Of a DNA stretch of 49,949 nt, positions 3,230 through 45,565 are shown in pieces (positions within the stretch are counted from its first letter, which is position 1; each line of letters starts with the position of its first letter). This DNA is from a virus. Taxonomy: Duplodnaviria; Caudoviricetes. The stretch is taken from positions 1 to 49,949 of the IMG/VR virus record IMGVR_UViG_3300037470_000128, one strand, 5' to 3'. The notes under the pieces were generated by a model. The model was not told the origin of the DNA and made no database searches. It worked only from the letters and a program-made list of their open reading frames with translations. A program made the translations under genes and the position numbers.

Positions 3230-3438
3230 CGCGGCGTCGTTTTTCTGTTGCGGCGCGGGACGTCGGCAACACGCTGAAGTCCGCGGTGTTCTGGATGGTG
3301 CTGTTTGCTCTGTGCGGCGCCGGCATGCTGGTGGCCGGAATTTGGCTGCTATATGGCATGCCATTGGCGCTGCTCGGTGGATCTGCCTGCTCGTTTCTGT
3401 TCTCGACCATCATTCTGCGCGGGGTAAGCCGTGGCTAA
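3226..3438 (+). CDS. Small two-TM membrane protein
   Basis: Two hydrophobic stretches; overlaps the upstream stop (ATGA) and the portal start. Confidence 0.7.
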   Translation: MTRRRFSVAARDVGNTLKSAVFWMVLFALCGAGMLVAGIWLLYGMPLALLGGSACSFLFSTIILRGVSRG

Positions 3439-4780
3439 CGTCCTGAAAGCACTGACCAGTGCGTTCAAGAAGTCACACGTCGCTCCGGTCGATAGCCGCG
3501 GCGGCTGGTGGCCTTGGATCCGCGAGCCGTACTCAGGCGCCTGGCAGAACAATGAGGACTGGTCGGTATCCAGCGTCCTGGAGCACCCCGTTGTTTACCG
3601 CTGTATCGGCCTGATCTCGTCGGATATAGGCAAGCTGCGAATCGGCCTGATGCAGCGTGATAAGGATGGCATCTGGACGTGGGCCAATAGCGCGTCGGTG
3701 AATGCGCTGCTGCGCAAGCCTAACCGCTACCAGAACCACATCCAGTTCAAAGAATCATGGATGATTTCAAAACTCATTCGGGGCAACACCTACGTACTGA
3801 AACAGCGCGATGCCCGTGGCAATACCGGAGCTCTTTACGTGCTCGATCCCAGCAGGGTGCAGGTTCTGGTGGCCCAGGACGGGTCGGTGTTCTATCAGTT
3901 GTCCCAGGACAGCCTGGTTGGGCAGGAGAGCACATCCGTAACGGTTCCGGCCTCAGAGATCATCCACGACCGTATGAACTGCTTTTTCCATCCGATGGTG
4001 GGTATATCCCCCCTATTTGCCGCTGGCATGTCAGCCACGCAGGGGCTACGCATCATCAACGACAGCGCCAAGTTTTTCGATAATGGTGCGCGTCCGAGTG
4101 GCATTCTGTCTGCCCCCGGGGCGATCAGCGACGAGACGGCGGGGCGCATGAAGGCGCACTGGGACGCAAACTATACCGGCGACAACGCCGGCAAGGTGGC
4201 AGTGCTCGGCGACGGATTGAAATTCGAGCCCATGCGCATGACCAGTGTCGATGCACAGCTGGTGGAGCAGATGCACAGTTCGGACGAGTCGATTTGCACC
4301 GCCTTCGGTGTGCCGGCCTACAAGGTAGGCGTCGGCCAGATGCCGACGCACGACAACATTGACGCGCTGACACAGGACTACTACTCACAGTGCCTGCAGG
4401 TGCACATCGAATCGATGGAGGCAGGGCTCGACGAGGGGCTTGATGTACCGGCCAATCAACGCACCGAGCTGGATCTTAACGGCCTGATCCGCATGGATTC
4501 GGGCAAACAAATCGAAACCCTGGTAGCTGGTGTGCGCGGGTCCGTCTACACCCCGAACGAGGGCCGCAAGCGCATCAATCTGAAACCGCTCACCGGTGGC
4601 GATACCGTTTACATGCAGCACCAAGACTATTCAATCCAGGCGCTGGCCTGGCGCGACGCCCAGCCTAACCCGTTTGACCCGACGCCCACGACGCAGCCTG
4701 CACCAGCAGGAACCGAGCAAGACAGCGAGGACCAGATGCGCATGCTGGCGCTGCTGGTCGAAAAGGAGCTACGCCAGTGA
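3431..4780 (+). CDS. HK97-family portal protein
   Basis: LLRKPNRYQ, LIRGNTYV, EIIHDR, GISPL, FFDNGARPSGIL, TPNEGR motifs. Confidence 0.95.
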   Translation: MANVLKALTSAFKKSHVAPVDSRGGWWPWIREPYSGAWQNNEDWSVSSVLEHPVVYRCIGLISSDIGKLRIGLMQRDKDGIWTWANSASVNALLRKPNRYQNHIQFKESWMISKLIRGNTYVLKQRDARGNTGALYVLDPSRVQVLVAQDGSVFYQLSQDSLVGQESTSVTVPASEIIHDRMNCFFHPMVGISPLFAAGMSATQGLRIINDSAKFFDNGARPSGILSAPGAISDETAGRMKAHWDANYTGDNAGKVAVLGDGLKFEPMRMTSVDAQLVEQMHSSDESICTAFGVPAYKVGVGQMPTHDNIDALTQDYYSQCLQVHIESMEAGLDEGLDVPANQRTELDLNGLIRMDSGKQIETLVAGVRGSVYTPNEGRKRINLKPLTGGDTVYMQHQDYSIQALAWRDAQPNPFDPTPTTQPAPAGTEQDSEDQMRMLALLVEKELRQ

Positions 4781-6006
4781 ATCTTAAAGACCTGACTGCC
4801 CAGGCCAAGGCGCTGGCGCCGGTGATTCGGGATTTCGTATCGAAATCCGTTGCTACATTGCGTGACGAGTTCACAAAAACGCTAAAGCAGCGTGATGAAG
4901 AGTGGATGGCGAAGTTTCGCGAGATAGAGCAGCAGCAGGACGGCGTCACGGCTGACGACATCGCCGCGAAGGCCGCCGAACTCATCCCGACCCCGCGGGA
5001 CGGAAAGGACGCTGACCCCGAAGCCATCAAGCAAATGGTTGAGGAAGCGGTCGCACTGATTCCAGCGCCTCGGGATGGCAGTGACGGTGCCGATGGCAAG
5101 GATGGACAGTCAGGACAGCCAGGTGAGAAAGGTGCGACAGGCCAGGAGGGCAAAGACGGAAAAGACGGAAAAGACGGAAAGGATGCTGAACCGGTCGACG
5201 TCGAGGCGATCATCGATCAGCTGAAAGGATATATTGACGATAAATTCGCTGCGCTACCCGTGCCGGCGGACGGCAAGGACGGCACCAGCATCACCATCGA
5301 TGATGTGCAGCCACTGCTGTCCGAACTGGTCACCAGTGCCGTCACCGAGATACCGGCGCCGACGAATGGCGTTGACGGAAAGGATGGGAAAGACGGTTCC
5401 GATGGCAAGAGCGTCGAGCCTGAATATGCCCGATCAATGCTTAAAGAATTGGTTGACCATCGTCTTGCCGATATCAAGCTACCGCAGGACGGTGCCCCGG
5501 GGCGCGACGCGATCGATATCGACATCCTGCCATCCATCGACCCGGAAAAGTCCTATACGCGGGGGACCTACGCCACCTACGACGGCGGTCTTTGGCGCGC
5601 CCACGCAACCACCGACGGCATGCGTGGCTGGGAATGCGTCGTCGACGGTATCAAAAGCATAGACATCAACCGAAACGATGATCGCAGCTTTGGCGTAATG
5701 GTGAATCGCTCCAGCGGCGAGTCACACCTGTCGACGTTCACGCTGCCAATCGTTATCGACAAAGGCGTCTACAAGCAATCCGACAGCTACCATGCAGGCG
5801 ACGGAGTGACCTGGGCAGGATCCTACTGGATCGCGCAGAAGGACGAGCCCAGCCAGAAGCCTGGCGAGGGTGAAGGATGGCGCTTGGCGGTGAAAAAAGG
5901 CCGCGATGGCAAGCATGGCGAAAAGGGTGACAAAGGCGATCAGGGACAGCCCGGCAACGCCGGCCGCGATCTGACGCAGATGGGCCCTGACGGGAGCAAA
6001 TGGTAA
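4777..6006 (+). CDS. Collagen-like (GxxG/DGKDG repeat) portal-associated head protein
   Basis: N-terminal coiled coil, many DGKDG and Gly-X-Y repeats, C-terminal GDGVTWAGSYWIA and WRLAVKKGRDGK motifs. Confidence 0.8.
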   Translation: MNLKDLTAQAKALAPVIRDFVSKSVATLRDEFTKTLKQRDEEWMAKFREIEQQQDGVTADDIAAKAAELIPTPRDGKDADPEAIKQMVEEAVALIPAPRDGSDGADGKDGQSGQPGEKGATGQEGKDGKDGKDGKDAEPVDVEAIIDQLKGYIDDKFAALPVPADGKDGTSITIDDVQPLLSELVTSAVTEIPAPTNGVDGKDGKDGSDGKSVEPEYARSMLKELVDHRLADIKLPQDGAPGRDAIDIDILPSIDPEKSYTRGTYATYDGGLWRAHATTDGMRGWECVVDGIKSIDINRNDDRSFGVMVNRSSGESHLSTFTLPIVIDKGVYKQSDSYHAGDGVTWAGSYWIAQKDEPSQKPGEGEGWRLAVKKGRDGKHGEKGDKGDQGQPGNAGRDLTQMGPDGSKW

Positions 6007-6383: not shown

Positions 6384-6739
6384 GTCTATCCGCCGGCCGC
6401 CTGCGCCATCGCATCACCATCCAACAGCTCGTCACCACCGGGCAGGATCCTACTACCGGTGAGCTCAATCAGGAATGGCAGGATCTGCATACCAGAGTAC
6501 CCGCAGCGATCGAACCGCTGAGCGCTCGCGAGTTCATGGCGTCTCAGGCGGTGCAGTCTAAATACAGCGCCCGCATCGTGATCCGGTACCGCGCCGGACT
6601 GGACCCTGCCATGCGTATCGTTGGCGTCTGCGGTTGCCATGATGGGAGGATTTTCAACCCGGCTGGCTGGCTGGCCGATCCTGACAGTGGGATCGAGTAT
6701 CTGACTGCGCCGGTGTCAGAGGGTATCGATAATGGTTAG
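6380..6739 (+). CDS. Head closure protein / head-tail adaptor (SPP1 gp16-like)
   Basis: AGRLRHRITIQ, AAIEPLSAREF, RIVIRYR motifs. Confidence 0.9.
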   Translation: MSLSAGRLRHRITIQQLVTTGQDPTTGELNQEWQDLHTRVPAAIEPLSAREFMASQAVQSKYSARIVIRYRAGLDPAMRIVGVCGCHDGRIFNPAGWLADPDSGIEYLTAPVSEGIDNG

Positions 6740-6957
6740 GGGCCACTGATTTCTGTGCCATCGATCTTATATGTGATGGTCACATCGAGTGCATTGAATA
6801 GCTTGGCAATAGTCGAGGCGCGCATGTCGGACTTGCCAGACTCGAAAGTCGCAATCGACACTTGGCTGACGCCTGCTATGTGAGCAAGTTCAGCCTGCGA
6901 TACTCCGCGCAGGTGGCGGATTGCGCGTAATTTAGGACCGGTAATCATAGTGCCCAT
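6736..6957 (-). CDS. XRE-family HTH transcriptional regulator, divergent from the Cas7-like gene
   Basis: LRAIRHLRGVSQAELAHIAGVSQVSIATFESGK is a classic Cro/CI HTH; GAGG RBS upstream. Confidence 0.9.
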   Translation of the reverse strand: MGTMITGPKLRAIRHLRGVSQAELAHIAGVSQVSIATFESGKSDMRASTIAKLFNALDVTITYKIDGTEISGP

Positions 6958-7056
6958 TGTAAGCCTCGCAAGCTGATTTAAAAATACAGAAAACTATTGC
7001 AATAGTATAGCGAGCTGCATTAACCTTCAAGGGTAAGGCAACCCTTGGAGGAAGTT
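6958..7056. promoter_or_regulatory. Divergent promoter region with perfect 14-bp palindrome (candidate XRE operator)
   Basis: ACTATTGCAATAGT at 6993-7006 overlaps TTGCAA (-35-like); hairpin CAAGGGT/ACCCTTG at 7028-7047 next to the GGAGG RBS. Confidence 0.6.
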
Positions 7057-7632
7057 ATGGAAACGATCAAAGTTAAAATCATTGGCACCCGCCCGCTGCT
7101 GATGCATGCAGACATCTTATCGGATCCGCTTAATGCGGCCACAAAGGCTCACAAAGCTGTGACATCAAAGCGCAAAAAAACAGACGACGATTACGAATTC
7201 ATCGCGAAGTCTGAATGGAGTTCCGGTCTTTATTTTGATGACGATATTGGTCCTTACATTCCGGGTGCAAATATCGATGCAGCACTGGTATCTGGTGCGA
7301 AGCTTTGCAGACTCGGAACCCAGATTAAGCGCTCGGCGGAATGCATTGATGAACGATGCAGGCTTGAATATGAAGGTCCAAGAACTGTAATAGGGTTGTG
7401 GGATAAGGGTTTCTATGATGCAAGAACCGTGAAGAACCCCGGAAGCAGCTCCAGGATCGTGCGCTATCGCCCGGTGTTTCACAGATGGTCGCTAGAGTGT
7501 GAAATTGCCTATGATCCCGAGTCGATTGATCGTGCTCAGGTTGTCAAATGCCTGAAAGATGCAGGCATATACAGCGGCATCGGCGACTACCGCCCCAAGT
7601 TCGGCCGATTCGATGTCGAGGTAGTGAAATGA
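7057..7632 (+). CDS. Stand-alone Cas7/RAMP-like protein (Vipr-like candidate RNA-guided effector)
   Basis: N-terminal strand IKVKIIGTRPLLMH, PYIPGANIDAAL (compare Csm3/Cas7 PxIPGSSxKG), C-terminal glycine loop SGIGDYRPKFGRFDV; sits upstream of GGC-NN arrays. Confidence 0.75.
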   Translation: METIKVKIIGTRPLLMHADILSDPLNAATKAHKAVTSKRKKTDDDYEFIAKSEWSSGLYFDDDIGPYIPGANIDAALVSGAKLCRLGTQIKRSAECIDERCRLEYEGPRTVIGLWDKGFYDARTVKNPGSSSRIVRYRPVFHRWSLECEIAYDPESIDRAQVVKCLKDAGIYSGIGDYRPKFGRFDVEVVK

Positions 7633-8108
7633 CAACGGCGAGGCATTTCGCGATGACAGACTGGTCTCTTGAGAATGCGGTTTCCGATTTCTTGAAAGAA
7701 GAGTTCAAGGACGGTGATATGATCAGCCACGACTGGCTGCGAATGGCGCTTGACATCAATGCCCGCGCTATCAAAAAAAACGAGTTCATCCTGTTGGAGC
7801 GGATGGAAGCCTTTAAGACTGCACTTCTGGAAACGCATCAGATTGCGTTGCAGAACGTGCGCGGGAAAGGCTATCGGCTGGTGCCGCCTTCAGAGCAGGC
7901 GCGCTATGCGGCAGAGGAGCTTGCGCACTACATGAAGAAGGGTTTCAAGAAGGCCGATTCACTGCTGACCAATACGCGCTGTGATCAGTTGTCCACGGAT
8001 GAGCGTCGCCGCCATACGGACACCCAGATCAGAGTGGCGGCGCTATCCGGGATGGTTAGTAAGGGTAAACGTGATGTTTTCCTGCTCTTCAAGAATAGTA
8101 AGAAATAG
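7629..8108 (+). CDS. Accessory protein translationally coupled to the Cas7-like gene; possible winged-HTH
   Basis: ATGA overlap; LQNVRGKGYRL resembles a wHTH wing; helical C-terminus. Confidence 0.7.
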   Translation: MTTARHFAMTDWSLENAVSDFLKEEFKDGDMISHDWLRMALDINARAIKKNEFILLERMEAFKTALLETHQIALQNVRGKGYRLVPPSEQARYAAEELAHYMKKGFKKADSLLTNTRCDQLSTDERRRHTDTQIRVAALSGMVSKGKRDVFLLFKNSKK

Positions 8109-8129
8109 GAATATCTATTGTGTCGTTCC

Positions 8130-8190
8130 CTGGCGCGGCACGGCCTGGCGAGGCCTGGCAGGGCGGGGCATGGCCAGGCAGGGCATGGGC
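8130..8190 (+). ncRNA. Pentamer array 1, (GGC-NN)x11; candidate guide RNA
   Basis: GGC every 5 nt from 8132 to 8182; NN = GC AC CT GA CT AG GG AT CA AG AT. Confidence 0.7.
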
Positions 8191-8251
8191 TGAGAGTTCA
8201 GCGGGTGATCGGTTCATAGAGCCGTGATCCCGGTGGGTTTTCCACCATATC

Positions 8252-8316
8252 AAGGCCGGGCCTGGCCTGGCGTGGCAGGGCAAGGCGGGGCGGGGCGAGG
8301 CTGGGCGCGGCAAGGT
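8252..8316 (+). ncRNA. Pentamer array 2, (GGC-NN)x12 plus GGT; candidate guide RNA
   Basis: GGC every 5 nt from 8254 to 8309, GGT at 8314; NN = CG CT CT GT AG AA GG GG GA TG GC AA. Confidence 0.7.
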
Positions 8317-8332
8317 GAAGTAACAGGAGAAC

Positions 8333-8360
8333 AAAACCCCCACATCGGGGGTTTTTTATT
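8333..8360 (+). terminator. Intrinsic terminator closing the Cas7-like/array module
   Basis: AAAACCCCC-ACATC-GGGGGTTTTTT. Confidence 0.85.
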
Positions 8361-8369
8361 GCCAGAAAT

Positions 8370-8954
8370 ATGACAAAACAAAGATGGAAAGATCAGACTG
8401 TCGCCGTAATTGGCAGCGGACCGAGCCTGACAGAGCACGACTGCCAGCTGATAGAAGCGGCAGGCCTGCCTACCGTCGTCACCAACGCCACTTGGAAAAT
8501 CGCCCCGTTCTGCGATGTGATCATGGGTGCCGACCATGCCTGGTGGCGGGACAATCACGACAAGATCACAGTGCCCGCCGAGAGGGTGACGATTTCGCAG
8601 AACGCTGCGCGGCAGTTCGGGCTGAGCCAATACGGCAAAACCCGGACATCGAAATTCAGCGGCCTGCGGGCCATCGAGTACGCCATGGATGAGGGTGCCA
8701 ATAGGATCATCCTGTTGGGGTTCGATTGCAGTACCCGGAAGGGCACGCACTGGCACGGCAATCACGTCGGCTTGGGTAACCCGGACGGCAACCGCTGCAA
8801 GAAATGGCAGTTCTGGCTGCTGGAGTTGTCGATGATCGCGAAGAAGCGCGGCGTCGAGATCATCAACTGCAGCCGCGAAACCGCACTGACCCATTTCCCG
8901 CGCATGCCGCTTGAAAAGGCACTGTCAAAAATAGGGGCAATAACCCGTGACTGA
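8370..8954 (+). CDS. DUF115/Maf/sialyltransferase-like Rossmann-fold protein (putative glycosyltransferase)
   Basis: VAVIGSGPSL, SGLRAI, IILLGFD, HWHG, IINCS motifs. Confidence 0.65.
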   Translation: MTKQRWKDQTVAVIGSGPSLTEHDCQLIEAAGLPTVVTNATWKIAPFCDVIMGADHAWWRDNHDKITVPAERVTISQNAARQFGLSQYGKTRTSKFSGLRAIEYAMDEGANRIILLGFDCSTRKGTHWHGNHVGLGNPDGNRCKKWQFWLLELSMIAKKRGVEIINCSRETALTHFPRMPLEKALSKIGAITRD

Positions 8955-9747
8955 TCCGATTCGCATCTTCGTCGGCTGCGCGCCGAACCATGAAGACGCC
9001 GAGAGCCAGGCTGTGCTTGAGTGGTCGATCCGCAAGCACACCCGCCTTCCGGTGCAGATCACATGGATGCGACTGAGCAGAGATACGGCGTCGCCGTGTT
9101 ATTCGTCCGACGGTGAGGGCTGGGATACCTCGCAGTGGGCAACGCCGTTCAGCGCCCTGCGTTGGTCTATTCCCGAGCAGTGCGGTTTTCAAGGCAAGGC
9201 CATCTACACCGATTCAGATGTGATATTCATGGCCGACCTGGCTGGGCTCTGGAATCAGCAGCACGCCCCGGGCAAGTTCCTGTTAGCCAAAGGCGGCGGC
9301 CAATGGCGCATCTGCGTCTCGATGTTTGACTGTGCCGAGGCGAAACGGAATATACCGCCGGTCGAGCGGATGATGCGTGACCCGCGGGCACACCAGAAGC
9401 TGTGCGGCCTGATCCGACAGAAACGGGATCTGGTGCAAGCGTTCTCCGGCGAGTGGAATTGCCTCGACCGCGAAATAGGACAGCGCCCCGTCGACCACCC
9501 GTCCATCAAAGCCATACACTACACAGACATGAAATCCCAGCCGCAGCTGCGCCACGCGCTGCCTAGGCTCAAGGCGCAAGGTCAAAAGCACTGGTTCGAC
9601 GGTAAGACAACGCCGCAGCGATTCCCGCGCATCAATGCTCTGTTCGATGACCTACTGGCCGAGGCTGCCGCGAACGGATACGGTCCCGATGGCTATATGC
9701 AGGATCCGCTTTTTGGTGACTACCGCAAGAAGGGATTTGCCGCATGA
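8947..9747 (+). CDS. GT-A fold glycosyltransferase (GT8-like)
   Basis: IRIFVG, WATPFS..RW, AIYTDSDVIF (DxD), EWNCLD, AIHYT. Confidence 0.8.
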   Translation: MTDPIRIFVGCAPNHEDAESQAVLEWSIRKHTRLPVQITWMRLSRDTASPCYSSDGEGWDTSQWATPFSALRWSIPEQCGFQGKAIYTDSDVIFMADLAGLWNQQHAPGKFLLAKGGGQWRICVSMFDCAEAKRNIPPVERMMRDPRAHQKLCGLIRQKRDLVQAFSGEWNCLDREIGQRPVDHPSIKAIHYTDMKSQPQLRHALPRLKAQGQKHWFDGKTTPQRFPRINALFDDLLAEAAANGYGPDGYMQDPLFGDYRKKGFAA

Positions 9748-10391
9748 TTACCGTTGCTTGCGTCCGCTCCGGCACCAAGTACGGCATTGAATACGTTGAG
9801 AGGCTCCGGAACATGGTAGCCCGGCACCTGCCGATGGAGCACCGGTTCATCTGCCTGACGGACCAGCCTGAAAAGATCGCCGGCGTCGAGAGGGTGCATA
9901 TCAGGCATTTCGGCTGGACGGGGTGGTGGGCAAAAATGGCGCTTCTGCATCCTCATCTGCGTGGCCCAGGGCGGTGCCTCTATTTCGACCTGGACACCGT
10001 TATCATCGACGACCTGACGCTGCTGGCGAATTGGGATGGAGAGTTCGGTATCTGCCAGAACTTTACAAAGCTGGCCGGAAATCATAACTGGCCCTGCAAA
10101 TATGGGTCCTGTGTTATGTCTCTGGCAGAAGGTTTCGGCGCCATTCTGTTTGACCGGTTCGTGGCTGACGCTAAGGGCTGGATGGCCCGCTGCCCCCGGG
10201 GCGATCAGCAGGCGATCGAGAAACTCTACCCGCACGCCGAGTTTCTGCAGGGCGCCATGCCGCCAGGCTATTTCGTCGGCCGCCGGGACTTCACCGGCGA
10301 TCGTCCGAGAGGCGCCGCGGTGATGGTCTTTGCTGGCCAGCACAAACCCCACAACACGCCGCACCAGTGGCTTAAAGAGGCATGGGTATGA
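9744..10391 (+). CDS. GT-A fold glycosyltransferase
   Basis: GTKYGIEYVERLRNMVARHL, FICLTD, GWWAKM, LYFDLDTVI (DxD), GDQ, KPH. Confidence 0.8.
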   Translation: MITVACVRSGTKYGIEYVERLRNMVARHLPMEHRFICLTDQPEKIAGVERVHIRHFGWTGWWAKMALLHPHLRGPGRCLYFDLDTVIIDDLTLLANWDGEFGICQNFTKLAGNHNWPCKYGSCVMSLAEGFGAILFDRFVADAKGWMARCPRGDQQAIEKLYPHAEFLQGAMPPGYFVGRRDFTGDRPRGAAVMVFAGQHKPHNTPHQWLKEAWV

Positions 10392-10987
10392 CCATTGTAA
10401 ATGGCCGCCAGGCGGCGCCGACCCTCGACGGCATCCGTGACGATCACCTGGCGCGGTATCAGCTAGCTGTAGACCATGCCCTGCGCAATCGCCTGAAAAC
10501 CGCCGTCGACGCAGGCTCCGGCATTGGCTATGGTGCCTGGATGCTGGCTAACGCCGGCCTTACTGTTGAGGCCTACGAGATCGATCAGAGAGCCATTGAC
10601 TACGGTCAGCAGTATTACCACCATGACCAGCTGGCCCGCATTCAGGCCGATATTTCCGAATTGGATATCCCGCAGGTTGACCTGCTCACCGCGTTCGAGA
10701 TCGTCGAACACAGTCACGCCGCCCCGGCATTCCTCGCCCGCGCCGCCGGCCATGCCCGTTGGTTGATTGCCTCTGTACCGAATGAGGCAGTGATCCCGTT
10801 CGCGCAGAACAGGCACCGCGAGCACGTGCGCCACTACACGGCTGATCAGTTCCGGAAGATGCTCCAGGACGCTGGCTGGGAGGTCGTGTCTATCGGCAGC
10901 CAGCGGGGCAAGTGCGGCGACGATGCCGAGGTCTGGCTGGGCGACACCTCCGGCCGCACGCTGATTGCGGTTTGTCGCTCAAAATGA
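10388..10987 (+). CDS. Class I SAM-dependent methyltransferase
   Basis: HLARY, VDAGSGIGYG (motif I), FEIVEH, SVPN. Confidence 0.88.
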   Translation: MTIVNGRQAAPTLDGIRDDHLARYQLAVDHALRNRLKTAVDAGSGIGYGAWMLANAGLTVEAYEIDQRAIDYGQQYYHHDQLARIQADISELDIPQVDLLTAFEIVEHSHAAPAFLARAAGHARWLIASVPNEAVIPFAQNRHREHVRHYTADQFRKMLQDAGWEVVSIGSQRGKCGDDAEVWLGDTSGRTLIAVCRSK

Positions 10988-11571
10988 TCATAAGCCATCG
11001 GTGGAAATTCATTTTCATCAAGACGCGAAAGACAGCGGGCTCGTCGATAGAGGCTGCGCTGGCTTCAATTCTGGGCCCGGATGATATATCGACCGGCTCG
11101 GTTCGTGACGGCACACCTCGTCTGAACTGCCCGGACAAAGTAACCGGGCATTGGGGCTGGCGCCGGATCGTCGGACTAGCCGGCAAGGATGCATTTTGGA
11201 ATTACCGCAGGTTCTGCGTTGAGCGTAACCCCTACGACAAAACGGTGAGCGACTGGCTGTACCACCGCGACCAGTTGCGCGACACTGCGCTGCCGCTGGC
11301 CGACTACATTGAGCACAATGGCCCGAGCGACTGGGAACGCTACACGCAGTCCGGTAAGCCGATTGCCCGTGTGCTGCTGTTCGAAAACATCGTCGCCGAG
11401 TTCGCCAAGCAGTGCGCGGCCATGGACATACCGGTGATAAATCTGGACCCATACCAGCTGAAGAGAAACCAATCCCGCGGCCCGTACAGTGACTATCACG
11501 ACTCAAGCAGCCGAACTTGCGTTGCTCGGATATTCGCCAACGAATTGAAGCACTTCGGATACCAGCCGTGA
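10984..11571 (+). CDS. Sulfotransferase (Sulfotransfer_2-like)
   Basis: MIISHRWKFIFIKTRKTAGSSI (5'-PSB loop) and RNPYDKTVS (3'-PB motif); ATGA overlap with the methyltransferase. Confidence 0.82.
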   Translation: MIISHRWKFIFIKTRKTAGSSIEAALASILGPDDISTGSVRDGTPRLNCPDKVTGHWGWRRIVGLAGKDAFWNYRRFCVERNPYDKTVSDWLYHRDQLRDTALPLADYIEHNGPSDWERYTQSGKPIARVLLFENIVAEFAKQCAAMDIPVINLDPYQLKRNQSRGPYSDYHDSSSRTCVARIFANELKHFGYQP

Positions 11572-12380
11572 AGATCATCGCCTTCGAGCCCGACTACAAC
11601 GAGAAGCACCGCGCCGTGCTCAGGGCCCTGTCCGAGGGTATCCCGGGTGCAGAAGTGCGAACCCTGGGCCAATACGAACCCTGCGACATCGCCGTGATTT
11701 TCGGTGCCGCGAAAGATGCCTACCCGCCGACCTGGCCCAAGCGCGAGATCCTCGCCAAACACCAGGGGCGACGGCTGCTGATGGTTGAGTCCGCCTTCGT
11801 GCGCCGCGGCGAGTACTATCAGGTGGGATGGGGCGGCTACGCCGGTAACGCGGATTTCAACAATGACCTCGTGCCGCGGGATCGCTGGGAGTCGATGGGC
11901 ATCAAGACCAAACCCTGGCAGCGCCGAACGGTCGGCCCGGTCGTTGTCTGTGGTCAGCTACCGCGCGACACCCAGGTTCAGGGTATGGATCACGTGGCCT
12001 GGTGCCGGCGCACCGTTAACGAATTGCGTAGAATGGGCGAGCATGTCATCTTTCGCCCGCATCCGAGGCAGCAGGACGTATCGATTTACGGCGTGCCGTC
12101 ACACCTGATCGGCGACGGCAAGATTGGCAAGACACTGGCCGCGGCAAAGTGCGTCGTCACCTGGAATTCCACGTCCGCGGTGGATGCTCTGATCCGAGGC
12201 GTCCCGGCCATCGCTATGCACCCCAGCTCGGTATCCTACCCAGTCGCCCAGCACCGCCTTGAAGACGTGAAGAAGCTACGCTACCCATCGCGTCGCCAGT
12301 GGCTGGCCGGCCTCGGGTATGCCCAGTGGACGCTGGAAGAAATGCGGGCCGGGCTTCCGTGGGTTCATCTGAACCGCTGA
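11568..12380 (+). CDS. KpsS/Capsule_synth-like GT-B glycosyltransferase
   Basis: GQLPRDTQ, FRPHP, VVTWNSTSAVDALIRGVP motifs; GTGA overlap. Confidence 0.72.
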   Translation: MKIIAFEPDYNEKHRAVLRALSEGIPGAEVRTLGQYEPCDIAVIFGAAKDAYPPTWPKREILAKHQGRRLLMVESAFVRRGEYYQVGWGGYAGNADFNNDLVPRDRWESMGIKTKPWQRRTVGPVVVCGQLPRDTQVQGMDHVAWCRRTVNELRRMGEHVIFRPHPRQQDVSIYGVPSHLIGDGKIGKTLAAAKCVVTWNSTSAVDALIRGVPAIAMHPSSVSYPVAQHRLEDVKKLRYPSRRQWLAGLGYAQWTLEEMRAGLPWVHLNR

Positions 12381-12388
12381 GGCTGCAG

Positions 12389-13039
12389 ATGGCTGAAATT
12401 GAATTCTGCGAGATTACCGACCGCCACGACAACATCGCCATTGTGGCCAGCGGCCCGAGCGCGCGGGGATTCTCGGCACCGCCGGGCGTGACGGTCATCG
12501 CAGTCAACGGTACCATAGAGTGGCTGCCGACAGCCGACTACTGGTTCACGCTGGACCCGGGCCAGCGCAACCGGGCCCGCATGCTTAACCGCCGACCCGG
12601 CACGGTCTACTTCGCGGCAGTGCCAAGCACATTCGGCACCGCCAGCGCCCCGCTCACAGGAATGCGTCAGCCGGCCCCAGCAGGAATCCGGTACCTGCTG
12701 CGCATGACTGGTAACGGGGTATTGAGTGCCAAGACCGGGCTTTCTGATCACCCCGGGCAGATCCACACCGGCAACAGCGCCTATGGCGCCCTTGGTCTGG
12801 CGTACCTCATGGATGCCCGGCGTATCTCCCTGTTCGGCGTCGATGCCAGCCACGACCGGAGGATTGAGGGCGGGCGATCCAGCAACCTGGATCATCTGCC
12901 GGCGCTTTTTGCTACCGCCGCCTCGCAGCTGTATGGTGCTGGTGTCGAGGTGGTCAACGCTAGCCCCGGCAGCGCGATCGAGTGCTTTCCGAAGATGACA
13001 ATGGGAGATGCCCTGCAATGGCTCAGCACGAACTGGTAA
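12389..13039 (+). CDS. Second DUF115/Maf-like putative glycosyltransferase (paralog of 8370-8954)
   Basis: IAIVASGPSA, VIAVN, GNSAYGALGLAY, ISLFGVD, VVNASPGS. Confidence 0.65.
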   Translation: MAEIEFCEITDRHDNIAIVASGPSARGFSAPPGVTVIAVNGTIEWLPTADYWFTLDPGQRNRARMLNRRPGTVYFAAVPSTFGTASAPLTGMRQPAPAGIRYLLRMTGNGVLSAKTGLSDHPGQIHTGNSAYGALGLAYLMDARRISLFGVDASHDRRIEGGRSSNLDHLPALFATAASQLYGAGVEVVNASPGSAIECFPKMTMGDALQWLSTNW

Positions 13040-26415: not shown

Positions 26416-27335
26416 GGCCGCAGGCGCAGTGGAGGCGAAGCAGGGTGGTTATTTTAGTGCCAGGTGGTGGTGGTACCCCATGGGGTTCTCGTGCGGTTTT
26501 CGGAGGGGGATTAGCCAGTGTTAACGTCAACACCATCGATTACGTCGAAATATCGACCCCGGGAAATGCTGTTGATTTTGGTGATCTTACATTAGCACGC
26601 CACACTCCAGCTGCAGCATCAGATGGTTCCCGTGCGGTTTTCGGAGGGGGATTCACCAGTGTTAACGTCAACACCATCGACTACGTCGAAATATCGACCC
26701 CGGGAAATGCTGTTGATTTTGGTGATCTTACATTAGCGCGCCGTCCCGCAGCTGCAGCATCAGATGGTTCCCGTGCGGTTTTCGGAGGGGGATTCACCGG
26801 TGTTGACGTCAACACCATCGACTACGTCGAAATATCGACCCCGGGAAATGCTGTTGATTTTGGTGATCTTACATTAGCGCGCCGTGCCGCAGCTGCAGCA
26901 TCAGATGGTTCCCGTGCGGTTTTCGGAGGAGGAATCACCAGTGTTAGTATAAACACCATCGATTATGTAGAAATATCGACCCCGGGAAATGCTGTTGATT
27001 TTGGTGATCTTACATTAGCACGCCACTCTCCAGCTGCAGCATCAGATGGTTCCCGTGCGGTTTTCGGAGGGGGATTCACCAGTGTTAACGTCAACACCAT
27101 CGACTACGTCGAAATATCGACCCCGGGAAATGCTGTTGATTTTGGTGATCTTACATCAGCGCGCCGTTCCGCAGCTGCAGCATCAGATGGTTCCCGTGCG
27201 GTTTTCGGAGGGGGATTCACCAGTGTTAACGTCAACACCATCGATTACGTCGAAATATCGACCCCGGGAAATGCTGTTGATTTTGGTGATCTTACATTAG
27301 CGCGCCGCATTTGTAGTGCTGCATCCGGAGCTTAA
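26412..27335 (+). CDS. Six-bladed Kelch-like beta-propeller (DFGDLT repeat), candidate receptor-binding or adhesion protein
   Basis: Six 47-aa repeats SRAVFGGG..NTIDYVEISTPGNAVDFGDLT.AR. Confidence 0.8.
   Translation: MRPQAQWRRSRVVILVPGGGGTPWGSRAVFGGGLASVNVNTIDYVEISTPGNAVDFGDLTLARHTPAAASDGSRAVFGGGFTSVNVNTIDYVEISTPGNAVDFGDLTLARRPAAAASDGSRAVFGGGFTGVDVNTIDYVEISTPGNAVDFGDLTLARRAAAAASDGSRAVFGGGITSVSINTIDYVEISTPGNAVDFGDLTLARHSPAAASDGSRAVFGGGFTSVNVNTIDYVEISTPGNAVDFGDLTSARRSAAAASDGSRAVFGGGFTSVNVNTIDYVEISTPGNAVDFGDLTLARRICSAASGA
26487..27332 (+). repeat. Six near-identical 141-bp tandem repeats
   Basis: Units start at 26487, 26628, 26769, 26910, 27051, 27192. Confidence 0.95.
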
Positions 27336-31395: not shown

Positions 31396-32132
31396 TCCAC
31401 CTCGGATATATAGCCGCTTTTCAGCGAGTACCAGGTGTCGGCCTTTACTCCATCGCGCCCAACAATCCCAGACCAAACGTTGACGATTTCTAAATCGTCG
31501 TTGCGCTCGACGAGGAATAGGGCGTTGCCTTTGGCACCCATGACGCGTCCCTCGTATCCTGATGCCATCGCCGCGCCCTGGTGGCCGGTGGAGCTGGCCG
31601 CGCCCTGGTCGCCGGTGGAGCTGGCCGCGCCCTGGTCGCCGGTGGAGCTGGCCGCGCCCCGGTGGCCGGTGGAGCTGGCCGCGCCCTGGTCGCCGGTGGA
31701 GCTGGCCGCGCCCTGGTCGCCGGTGGAGCTGGCCGCGCCCTGGTCGCCGGTGGAGCTGGCCGCGCCCTGGTCGCCGGTGGAGCTGGCCGGAGATTCGGGA
31801 TTGACCGGTTTGCACCGACTAATGGTGTATTCGATAGCGGATTTGACGAGCCCCGGCAACGTGATCTCGGCAGAAATTGTTATCTTGGAGCTGGCAACTT
31901 TCGAGTCGCCATTGTGGTGATCGATAACGCCGCTCTGTTCGACTACTGCGTATCGAGAACTTGCCGGCGCGTAGTAGCTGAATACATCAAGTGGATACTC
32001 GCAGGCGTGAAATCCTTTATTACAGGCCTTCACACCACCTTGGTGCTCATAGGTGCCGCCAATCTCGTACTGATACCCACGACAGGTCAGGTCCTGGTTT
32101 AATCCCTTGTATGCGGTGATTTTGTCTGTCAC
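31392..32132 (-). CDS. Phage protein with [18 protein letters not shown] domain and ASSTGDQGA repeats (DUF7666-like)
   Basis: Recognisable N-terminal motif, 9-aa repeats, C-terminal [12 protein letters not shown]. Confidence 0.85.
31575..31790 (-). repeat. About eight 27-bp coding tandem repeats
   Basis: Unit GGTGGAGCTGGCCGCGCCCTGGTCGCC on the + strand. Confidence 0.9.
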
Positions 32133-36502: not shown

Positions 36503-36892
36503 ATGAACAATATCGATAATCTGACATTTGGCGAACTAAAGAAGATCGCCGCAATGTTTCATGCTACACAATCACCATCGGTTAATTACGGTCTAAACGC
36601 TATGATCGGAAAGAAATGCATCATCCGCACTTATTCTGCCGGTGTTTGGTTTGGCAAGGTCGAGCAGAAGAGCGGTAATGAAGTTATCATCAAAAACGCT
36701 CGCCGCATGTGGCGCTGGCACGCGGCTGAATCAATCAGTCTAAGTGCCGTGGCGAATCATGGTATCCGACACGATAAAAGCAAGATCGCTGAATCGGTTA
36801 ATGTGGTCTGGCTTGAGGCTATAGAGCTAATCCCATGCACCGATAAAGCAATCACCAGCATAGAAGGCACAAATGATGTCGAAGCTGAATAA
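36503..36892 (+). CDS. DUF6948-like phage protein
   Basis: CIIRTYSAGVWFG, ARRMWRW, ISLSAVA, IELIPC. Confidence 0.78.
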   Translation: MNNIDNLTFGELKKIAAMFHATQSPSVNYGLNAMIGKKCIIRTYSAGVWFGKVEQKSGNEVIIKNARRMWRWHAAESISLSAVANHGIRHDKSKIAESVNVVWLEAIELIPCTDKAITSIEGTNDVEAE

Positions 36893-37139
36893 ACCAGACG
36901 GAGACGGCTCCGGCTACGGCTCCGGCGACGGCGACGGCGACGGCTCCGGCTACGGCGACGGCTCCGGCTACGGCTCCGGCTACGGCTCCGGCGACGGCGA
37001 CGGCTACGGCTCCGGCTACGGCGACGGCTCCGGCTCCGGCTCCGGCTACGGCTACGGCGACGGCGACGGCTCCGGCTACGGCTACGGCGACGGCTCCGGC
37101 TCCGGCTACGGCTCCGGCGACGGCTCCGGCTACGGCTAA
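36873..37139 (+). CDS. Gly-rich low-complexity protein, (G[DSY])n
   Basis: GGC-(TCC/TAC/GAC) hexamer repeats; commonly follows DUF6948-like genes. Confidence 0.65.
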   Translation: MMSKLNKPDGDGSGYGSGDGDGDGSGYGDGSGYGSGYGSGDGDGYGSGYGDGSGSGSGYGYGDGDGSGYGYGDGSGSGYGSGDGSGYG

Positions 37140-43799: not shown

Positions 43800-44300
43800 G
43801 TGAGCGAATGTCTTTGGAAAATTGTTGCATGGGTAGTTTCTCGCCGACCCGTAGCCTCGTGGCTCATGCGGCGTGCGCAGCGCACTCCATATCTGCACAT
43901 TTACTCGCCAGACGGGTCCGAGGTCTACATGTACCGCTGGTGGCTGTTTAACCCGTATGACAACGACACGCGCCAATGCAGGTATCGATGGTGCCCGATA
44001 TCGATCAGAGTGCATCGGATAATGACGCCGGATAATGACCGGCACCTGCATGACCACCCGTGGAACGCTCAGACGATTATCTTAGATGGGTGGTACACGG
44101 AGCGCCGGCAGTTTTCTAATCACACGCGTATTGAAGGCGATACCGCGCCATTGCGATTTGGTGAGTACCACCAGATTACGGACGTTTCCAGGACCGGCGC
44201 GACTACGCTGTTCATTACGGGAAAATACCGCGGAACATGGGGCTTTTTGGTTGACGGAATAAAAATACGGTACCGAGAATATCTTGGGATAGGTGAGTAA
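43800..44300 (+). CDS. Cupin-like phage protein
   Basis: YMYRWWL, IRVHRI..D.DRHLHDHPW, GWYTE, TLFITG..WGF. Confidence 0.7.
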   Translation: MSECLWKIVAWVVSRRPVASWLMRRAQRTPYLHIYSPDGSEVYMYRWWLFNPYDNDTRQCRYRWCPISIRVHRIMTPDNDRHLHDHPWNAQTIILDGWYTERRQFSNHTRIEGDTAPLRFGEYHQITDVSRTGATTLFITGKYRGTWGFLVDGIKIRYREYLGIGE

Positions 44301-44302
44301 TT

Positions 44303-44518
44303 ATGAGCGAATGGCAAGAAGCAAGGATTAAACGTGATGAACTGGTCCAGCCGCGCCCGATCGGGACCGTTGAGCTGTGGCAGCGGCAAACTTTTCAGGC
44401 GCGCGGTGCCCCGCTGGTGGGCGACGCCATGCCCATGCCTGCACTGGGCTACGACTGGCGGGCACAGGTGTGCGAGCGGACCGGGGATTACGTGCTGAAG
44501 TGGCGGGCCCAGGCATGA
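44303..44518 (+). CDS. Hypothetical protein
   Basis: Operon context. Confidence 0.5.
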   Translation: MSEWQEARIKRDELVQPRPIGTVELWQRQTFQARGAPLVGDAMPMPALGYDWRAQVCERTGDYVLKWRAQA

Positions 44519-44631
44519 GCAGGAGCGGATACGTAGACGGCGGTGATAGAGATGAGTATTGACGACTTTAACAACACGGGTTCGCCCAGGCGGTGTTTAA
44601 ATACAACGGGCGGCACCTGACAAGATCAGCC

Positions 44632-44686
44632 GCCTAACGCATAAGCGCAGCGGCCCGAAGGGTCCGACTGGCGCGCCTGGTTAGGC
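44632..44686 (-). mobile_element. attC-like integron cassette recombination site (55 bp)
   Basis: On the - strand: GCCTAAC-CAGGC-GCGCCAGTCGGACCC-TTC-GGGCCGCTGCGC-TTATGC-GTTAGGC, with RYYYAAC/GTTRRRY ends and extrahelical bases. Confidence 0.72.
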
Positions 44687-44692
44687 GCCGAC

Positions 44693-45565
44693 ATGGGAAA
44701 GACTATGAACGTAATTGCAAAGACAAACCCATACGCGATCGACGGGCCGCTATGCCTGTCATTTAGCGGCGGCCGAACCAGCGCCTATATGCTGTTCAGG
44801 GTGATGGAAGCGCACGGTGGCCAGTTGCCCGATGACGTGGTTGTCTGCTTCGCCAATACAGGGCGAGAAATGCCGCAAACGCTGGATTTTGTGCGTGACT
44901 GCGGGGAGCGGTGGGGGGTTGATATTGTTTGGCTGGAGCTTGGCATTGTCAGACTGGATGACACCAGCAAGCGAAAGCGGTTTGAGTATGAGACGCGGGT
45001 TGTCAACTACGAAACGGCCAGTCGAAACGGTGAGCCGTTTATGGCACTTGTTGAGGCCAGAAAATACCTGCCCAACCCTGTGGCCCGATTCTGCACCGCC
45101 GATCTTAAAGTGCGGCGGATAAACACATACCTGAAGTCGCTGGGGTGGGAAGAGTGGGACACCGCTGTTGGCATCCGCGCCGACGAGCGCCGACGAGCGC
45201 ACAAGATGATAAATGCAGGATCGGACAGCGGCGAGAACAAAATTATACCGCTGTACTGGGATGGCGTGACCAAGGAGACGGTTTCAGATTTCTGGGACAA
45301 CCAGGATTTTGATTTGCGGCTGCCCAACAACAACGGCACCACGGACTGGGGAAACTGCGACCTGTGTTACCTCAAGGGGGCAGCGAAAAAGATCAGCATA
45401 ATCAGGGATAGGCCAGACCTGGCTGAATGGTGGGTTAACGCTGAGCGAGCGATAGGAAGCACGTTCAGAAACGACCACCCGACCTATCAGCAGATGCTGG
45501 ATTATGTGGGCGACCAGCCAAGCTTAGAGCTGGATGATTCTATCAGCTGCTACTGCGGTGATTAG
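44693..45565 (+). CDS. PAPS reductase-family (PP-loop) protein
   Basis: LSFSGGRTSAYM, FANTGRE, RFCTADLK, GIRADE, GNCDLCYLK, C-terminal CYC. Confidence 0.88.
   Translation: MGKTMNVIAKTNPYAIDGPLCLSFSGGRTSAYMLFRVMEAHGGQLPDDVVVCFANTGREMPQTLDFVRDCGERWGVDIVWLELGIVRLDDTSKRKRFEYETRVVNYETASRNGEPFMALVEARKYLPNPVARFCTADLKVRRINTYLKSLGWEEWDTAVGIRADERRRAHKMINAGSDSGENKIIPLYWDGVTKETVSDFWDNQDFDLRLPNNNGTTDWGNCDLCYLKGAAKKISIIRDRPDLAEWWVNAERAIGSTFRNDHPTYQQMLDYVGDQPSLELDDSISCYCGD

Follow-up and report, generated by a model that had tools for sequence, protein, structure and literature searches.

The VIPR mechanism has been published together with structures and phage experiments (10.64898/2026.04.26.720920). In the systems of Escherichia phage SUSP1 and of P. 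fulva, Vipr polymerizes on its RNA, flips out each GGY triplet, pairs the intervening dinucleotide (NN) with the target strand, and skips one base; reading proceeds from the end with the 3' tail, requires no PAM, and represses transcription. Further VIPR papers have appeared (10.64898/2026.04.26.720927, 10.64898/2026.10.15.759431, 10.64898/2026.10.21.760802). According to this literature, Vap1 strengthens the defense, VIPR is naturally directed against satellites, prophage regulators, and other VIPR loci, and seven VIPR types are defined by position in the Vipr phylogeny.

We analyzed a 49,949-nt stretch of tailed-virus DNA (IMG/VR record IMGVR_UViG_3300037470_000128; below, the window), in which a sequence-only reading had noticed an array of GGC triplets and proposed that the NN pairs between them form a guide for a gapped target with a 1-nt gap. 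This proposal coincides with the published VIPR mechanism, and homologs of Vipr and Vap1 adjoin the array. Judging by its sequence and surroundings, this array (array 1) very probably supplies the programmable guide of a VIPR RNA (vrRNA) in a type II-like VIPR system, which is encoded in an accessory cassette of a tailed phage; the type II assignment, made on the position of vap1 after vipr, is the most likely one. The locus would be an additional, newly noted member of the known VIPR family, and it or its close relatives may stand in the supplementary tables of the cited papers. The gapped two-base code itself is already published (10.64898/2026.04.26.720920), and the idea is not new.

Gene content of the phage and its accessory cassette

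The 34 ORFs scanned in the window include genes for terminase, capsid, portal, head-tail and tail proteins, RecE/RecT, helicase, primase, and endolysin. The host is likely a gammaproteobacterium of the Marinobacter/Halomonas kind, since the closest named relatives of the helicase come from Marinobacter and Halomonas (69-71%). Neither a CRISPR repeat-spacer array nor other cas genes were detected in the tandem repeats of the window or among 41 window proteins compared with PHROGs, and the locus is a minimal one, in a phage or provirus and free of a CRISPR array.

Several other features of this genome were recorded. The major capsid protein is apparently fused to the maturation protease (791-2779, 662 aa), and the portal is apparently split in two ORFs (3431-4780 and 4777-6006) relative to phrog_2271. 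Glycosyltransferase-, sialyltransferase-, and sulfotransferase-like genes occupy positions 8370-13039, between the head-closure and tail genes, which suggests glycan decoration of the virion or of DNA. A 141-nt (47-codon) repeat is present in 5.8 copies with 93% identity in an ORF of the tail region (26484-27307, phrog_19111). The early region holds a 27-nt repeat in 8 copies within a small gene (31570-31789) and a 6-nt repeat in 39 copies (36904-37138) within a Gly-Ser/Asp/Tyr-rich ORF (36873-37139). Cysteine dioxygenase-like and PAPS reductase-like genes are found in the replication region (43800-45565).

Flanked by the head-closure gene and by one resembling sialyltransferase genes, the accessory cassette (6706-8408) comprises an HTH gene, vipr, vap1, two vrRNAs, and a probable terminator. 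Its limits are marked by contig joints and loose ends, and its GC content is 52%, versus 61% and 59% in the flanks. The HTH-vipr-vap1 layout recurs in four related loci (L088, L093, L095, and L096), at differing points of phage structural modules.

The vipr gene (7057-7632, plus strand) encodes a RAMP/Cas7-like guide-binding protein of 191 aa, counted from the ATG at 7057, and is preceded by GGAGG at 7047-7051. Over an alignment of 194 columns, the protein shares 40% identity with SUSP1 agp039 (YP_009199429.1, the accession given for Vipr in one of the VIPR papers) and matches PDB entry 36PP, 'SUSP1 Vipr protein', with an E-value of 1.3e-42; a Pfam search matched no family. A structure model of high confidence (pLDDT 93.9) has its best fold matches among Csm3, Cmr, and Cas7-family chains, with TM-scores of about 0.5 to CRISPR RAMPs at Foldseek E-values of 0.003 or worse. 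Vipr has the features of a stand-alone RAMP homolog with RRM, thumb, and G-loop.

Examination of the alignment to SUSP1 Vipr revealed that H17, K33, R39, K82, G87, R138, D177, and R179 are retained; these residues are reported to contact guide or DNA, or to be required for silencing, in the Viprs studied. Position 178 is filled by Tyr, giving D-Y-R in the G-loop, as described for the P. fulva protein. The pocket and clamp residues changed relative to SUSP1 are E71A, M72N, K88T, and C173S. Residue 175 of SUSP1 Vipr itself (L009) is Val in the translation, versus T175 named in the structure paper.

The start of vap1 (7629-8108, plus strand; phrog_5926) overlaps the stop codon of vipr (ATGA). Its product is 28% identical to that of the gene following vipr in SUSP1 (pairwise E-value 2e-14), and we call that SUSP1 gene vap1 after the way the VIPR papers describe the locus. 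Upstream of vipr and divergent from it lies a small XRE-type HTH gene (6736-6957, minus strand; Pfam HTH_3, E-value 1.1e-10), a possible regulator, counterparts of which are present in the same divergent placement and with 61-70% identity in the four loci named above. Between the two genes, sequence inspection revealed a perfect 14-bp palindrome (6993-7006), a candidate operator, which does not recur in this form in any of the four relatives examined. A 7-bp hairpin is also found between these genes, at 7028-7047. A consensus scan of the plus strand yielded no sigma-70 promoter.

Guide tracts and the one-nucleotide skip

Direct reading of the guide tract of vrRNA 1 (8132-8186), which is intergenic and located on the plus strand, gives 11 GGC/NN units with the NN string GC AC CT GA CT AG GG AT CA AG AT, followed by GGGCT at 8187-8191. 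This agrees letter for letter with the sequence-only reading, both in the 11 exact GGC spaced 5 nt apart and in the dinucleotides listed there. One extra YNNGG unit can be read upstream, from 8129. The guide tract of vrRNA 2 (8254-8318, plus strand) has 13 GGY/NN units. The window thus holds tracts of 11-12 and 13 units on the strand of vipr and directly after vap1, which fits a vrRNA of 9-16 YNNGG repeats beside vipr. Across both strands of the whole window, these two arrays are the sole perfect GGY runs of at least four units. When the window was simulated 200 times with an order-4 Markov model, the longest period-5 trinucleotide run was 3 (145 simulations), 4 (54), or 5 (one), compared with observed runs of 12 in array 2 and 11 in array 1.

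The information in guide 1 had been estimated at about 22 nt, and 22 NN letters are indeed present. However, the relatives show a strong bias in the NN that directly precedes the GGGCT tail, which is AA in 82, AT in 18, and AG in 13 of 130 distinct tails (A-initial in at least 113). This NN may be partly scaffold, and the content of guide 1 is therefore probably nearer 20 nt.

The arrays of the relatives mostly end in GGGCT, followed by a tail resembling that of vrRNA 1 (8187-8246, plus strand), which has a fold z-score of -2.69 and is predicted to form three stems (8189-8202, 8203-8231, and 8232-8246). In an alignment of 32 tails, comprising that of the window and 31 similar ones chosen from the 130 distinct tails found, compensatory changes were observed in seven of the 12 consensus pairs; the last helix is poorly aligned, and we rely on these seven pairs and on helices 1 and 3. 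A structured 3' tail after the repeats is thus present for array 1. Array 2 lacks the usual first tail hairpin with GGGCT and is followed by a terminator-like hairpin only, a predicted 9-bp stem and a run of T (8333-8357, plus strand). This is a probable intrinsic terminator of the cassette by fold prediction; it was absent from the plus-strand list of the consensus scan.

The loci collected because they encode a Vipr relative number 105 and are in part redundant; genomes contributed 25 of them, and viral contigs the best 80 of 108. At least one GGY array was found in 102 of these loci, and a Vap1 relative in 61; all 351 arrays are on the strand of vipr, and none is on the opposite strand. To assess the code, 256 distinct guides from the related loci and the window were compared with the same loci, with arrays masked (1.29 Mb, both strands). 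A best site with at most two mismatches was obtained for 12 guides at gap 1, compared with three at gap 0, none at gap 2, and two at gap 3, and for one shuffled guide at gap 1. Both perfect gap-3 matches were unmasked degenerate arrays and were rejected.

The skipped base falls on codon position 3 of the covering plus-strand ORF in 11 of the 12 gap-1 matches, the twelfth being ambiguous, in agreement with the earlier expectation that a 1-nt gap would skip codon wobble positions. Three gap-1 matches are perfect, two of them inside the vipr genes of other loci and one elsewhere, in a gene that we take to be CsrA-like. The two vipr sites (L068:2654-2679 and L077:2507-2535) are matched by guides from L073 and from L072/L074, and could represent VIPR aimed at VIPR. 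The 1-nt skip rule in this clade is supported by these related guides. The two guides of the window had five mismatches in their best sites in the 1.29-Mb set, at gap 1. In this set, the comparison of gaps 0-3 with shuffled controls, of the kind suggested by the sequence-only reading as a check, produced an excess at gap 1 for the related guides and no near-perfect site for the guides of the window.

The following mechanism can be proposed. From layout and strand, transcription would run from vipr through vap1 into both vrRNAs. Vipr would then polymerize along the RNA, with every subunit flipping out a single GGC and exposing the NN, as suggested by homology and the conserved residues. The NN pairs would read double-stranded DNA from the tail end, two bases being read and one skipped, with no PAM; this step has been shown by others, and the 1-nt skip is supported here through the related guides. 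Once bound, the complex would keep a gene from being transcribed; this gene would belong to a rival VIPR locus or to a competing phage, prophage, or satellite. Vap1 would enhance the effect.

Target search and variation between populations

The sequence-only reading had found no target in the window by eye, and a systematic search of the window at gaps 0-3 performed no better than shuffled guides, the best sites having 15/22 matches for guide 1 and 17/26 for guide 2. Absence of a self-target has likewise been reported for other VIPRs (10.64898/2026.04.26.720920). Sequence collections were scanned at gap 1. The exact 22-base pattern of guide 1 had no match in metagenome contigs and none in genome contigs, and an 18-base pattern had one match in metagenomes, at chance level. 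In viral contigs, four 16-base sub-patterns of guide 1 matched 4, 4, 6, and 1 stretches, and two of guide 2 matched 6 and 4, again at chance level. Comparison of the guide with a reversed-pattern control gave 1 versus 0 matches in five genomes, 2 versus 3 in 301 Halomonadaceae genomes, and 1 versus 3 in 401 order-level genomes.

Among the extended sub-pattern matches, a single site (L145) attained 20/22; about two such matches are expected by chance, and it was not accepted as a target. The site is located in the last codons of a gene of the virion block, with the skip at the wobble position, in a phage that has no detectable protein in common with the window and no site for guide 2. The lack of a target in our searches is most likely explained by its location in an element of an uncultured host, outside the collections searched.

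The stretch is carried by 24 public DNA runs, four of which (X2, X3, X7, and X11) were examined, all as contigs. The runs listed include none of RNA, which has no bearing on expression. One contig of X11 joins position 6705 to 8409, and loose ends occur at 6705 and at 8397/8409 in X2, X3, and X7, the last of which has next to no coverage inside the cassette; phage variants without the 1.7-kb cassette therefore exist. The letters at the loose ends hint at a short alternative linker that connects the head-closure gene with the gene following it, so that both gene ends would differ between the two alleles. A further X11 joint links 8188 with 8274 (depth 2); it may derive from the array of another organism and was not used.

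Variation was also observed within the cassette. A single contig of X3 spans 6661-8437 with 15 differences. Eleven listed substitutions are in array 2, and every one of them falls on an NN position; a 5-nt deletion also makes array 2 one unit shorter. A contig of X2 has a 10-nt insertion at 8252, which adds two units to array 2. Array 1 is unchanged in both runs, and guide 1 and the genes are about 99.8% identical. The naive chance of all 11 substitutions falling on NN is 4e-5 if the changes are assumed to be independent; they are probably a single replacement event and not 11 independent ones.

It is conceivable, though we regard it as improbable, that this population has been caught while exchanging a VIPR guide: the cassette comes and goes at one site, and guide 2, the one next to the terminator, is rewritten with a new NN string and with whole units gained or lost, while the GGC scaffold, guide 1, and the genes are kept. 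If so, and if the new strings were not copies of existing vrRNAs but used target DNA as a template or were assembled one unit at a time, this would represent the acquisition step of VIPR immunity, of which we found no description in the available portions of the VIPR literature searched. A polymorphic cassette with one guide swapped and the other fixed offers a natural case for studying the origin of new vrRNA guides.

The same data bear on the reading that the locus is a VIPR by descent, in which guide 1 is a relic or decoy, having no living target or titrating Vipr, and guide 2 alone is in active turnover. No target of guide 1 was found in the collections searched, guide 1 is static where guide 2 varies, and solo and decoy vrRNAs are reported in the VIPR literature. 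However, the 11 GGC triplets are perfect without exception, the structured tail is intact, and neither gene is interrupted; purifying selection would account just as well for guide 1 being the same in two runs, and the collections searched did not contain the host of this phage and its co-occurring elements. We consider a relic or decoy unlikely, though it deserves some weight.

A target of guide 1 in a host chromosomal gene, and not in a rival mobile element, is in our opinion very unlikely. Host-directed decoy guides exist, according to the literature, and one Halomonadaceae genome (L133) has an in-frame site with 18/22 matches, in which eight NN in a row are matched if the unit preceding the first GGC is included. 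Yet its mismatches are at the tail-proximal end, where binding starts, and the Halomonadaceae matches as a whole are below the reversed-pattern control; the matches of related guides are in VIPR-flanking phage DNA, the sole DNA scanned in that test. Finally, although the arrays are GC-rich and tandem and a 214-codon minus-strand ORF overlaps array 2, a slippage microsatellite or a coding low-complexity repeat without guide function has a negligible probability: the sequence-only reading rightly saw a fixed triplet with varied dinucleotides as unlike slippage, array 1 is intergenic on the plus strand, variants are confined to NN, and this explanation is contradicted by one-strand linkage to vipr (102 of 105 loci), covariation in the conserved tail, and the gap-1 excess of the related guides.

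Comparison with known systems

The reading of array 1 as the guide tract of a VIPR vrRNA can be set against several known systems. TIGR-Tas systems are phage-associated and read DNA, with no need of a PAM, through guides encoded in arrays; they have an 18-nt period and a Nop-domain protein; the period differs from that of the arrays described here, and the protein of the present locus is a RAMP, of another family. The RAMPs of Class 1 CRISPR systems (Csm3, Cmr4, and Cas7) share with Vipr the fold with RRM, thumb, and G-loop, at TM-scores of about 0.5, whereas their pairing is contiguous and that of the present locus would be gapped.

The type II VIPR of SUSP1 resembles the locus in its homologous Vipr (40%) and Vap1 (28%), in its phage-borne two-gene operon, and in having a structured 3' tail behind GGY/NN tracts of 9-16 units. 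However, SUSP1 has four vrRNAs, one upstream and three downstream, with mostly GGT triplets and a pseudoknot tail, whereas the window has two, both downstream, with GGC triplets and a tail predicted as a series of hairpins. The divergent HTH gene is a further difference, and the carrier is an unrelated lambda-like tailed phage.

Prophage VIPRs of Pseudomonas, likened by description to the P. fulva clade of the published paper, and of Vreelandella (Halomonas) have Viprs that are 65-70% identical to that of the window, Vap1 proteins with up to 70% identity (L026), and the same GGGCT...CAGC...GGTG type of tail. In most of them, three to six vrRNAs precede vipr close to the immunity region, in contrast to the present cassette, which resides in the head-tail gene block.
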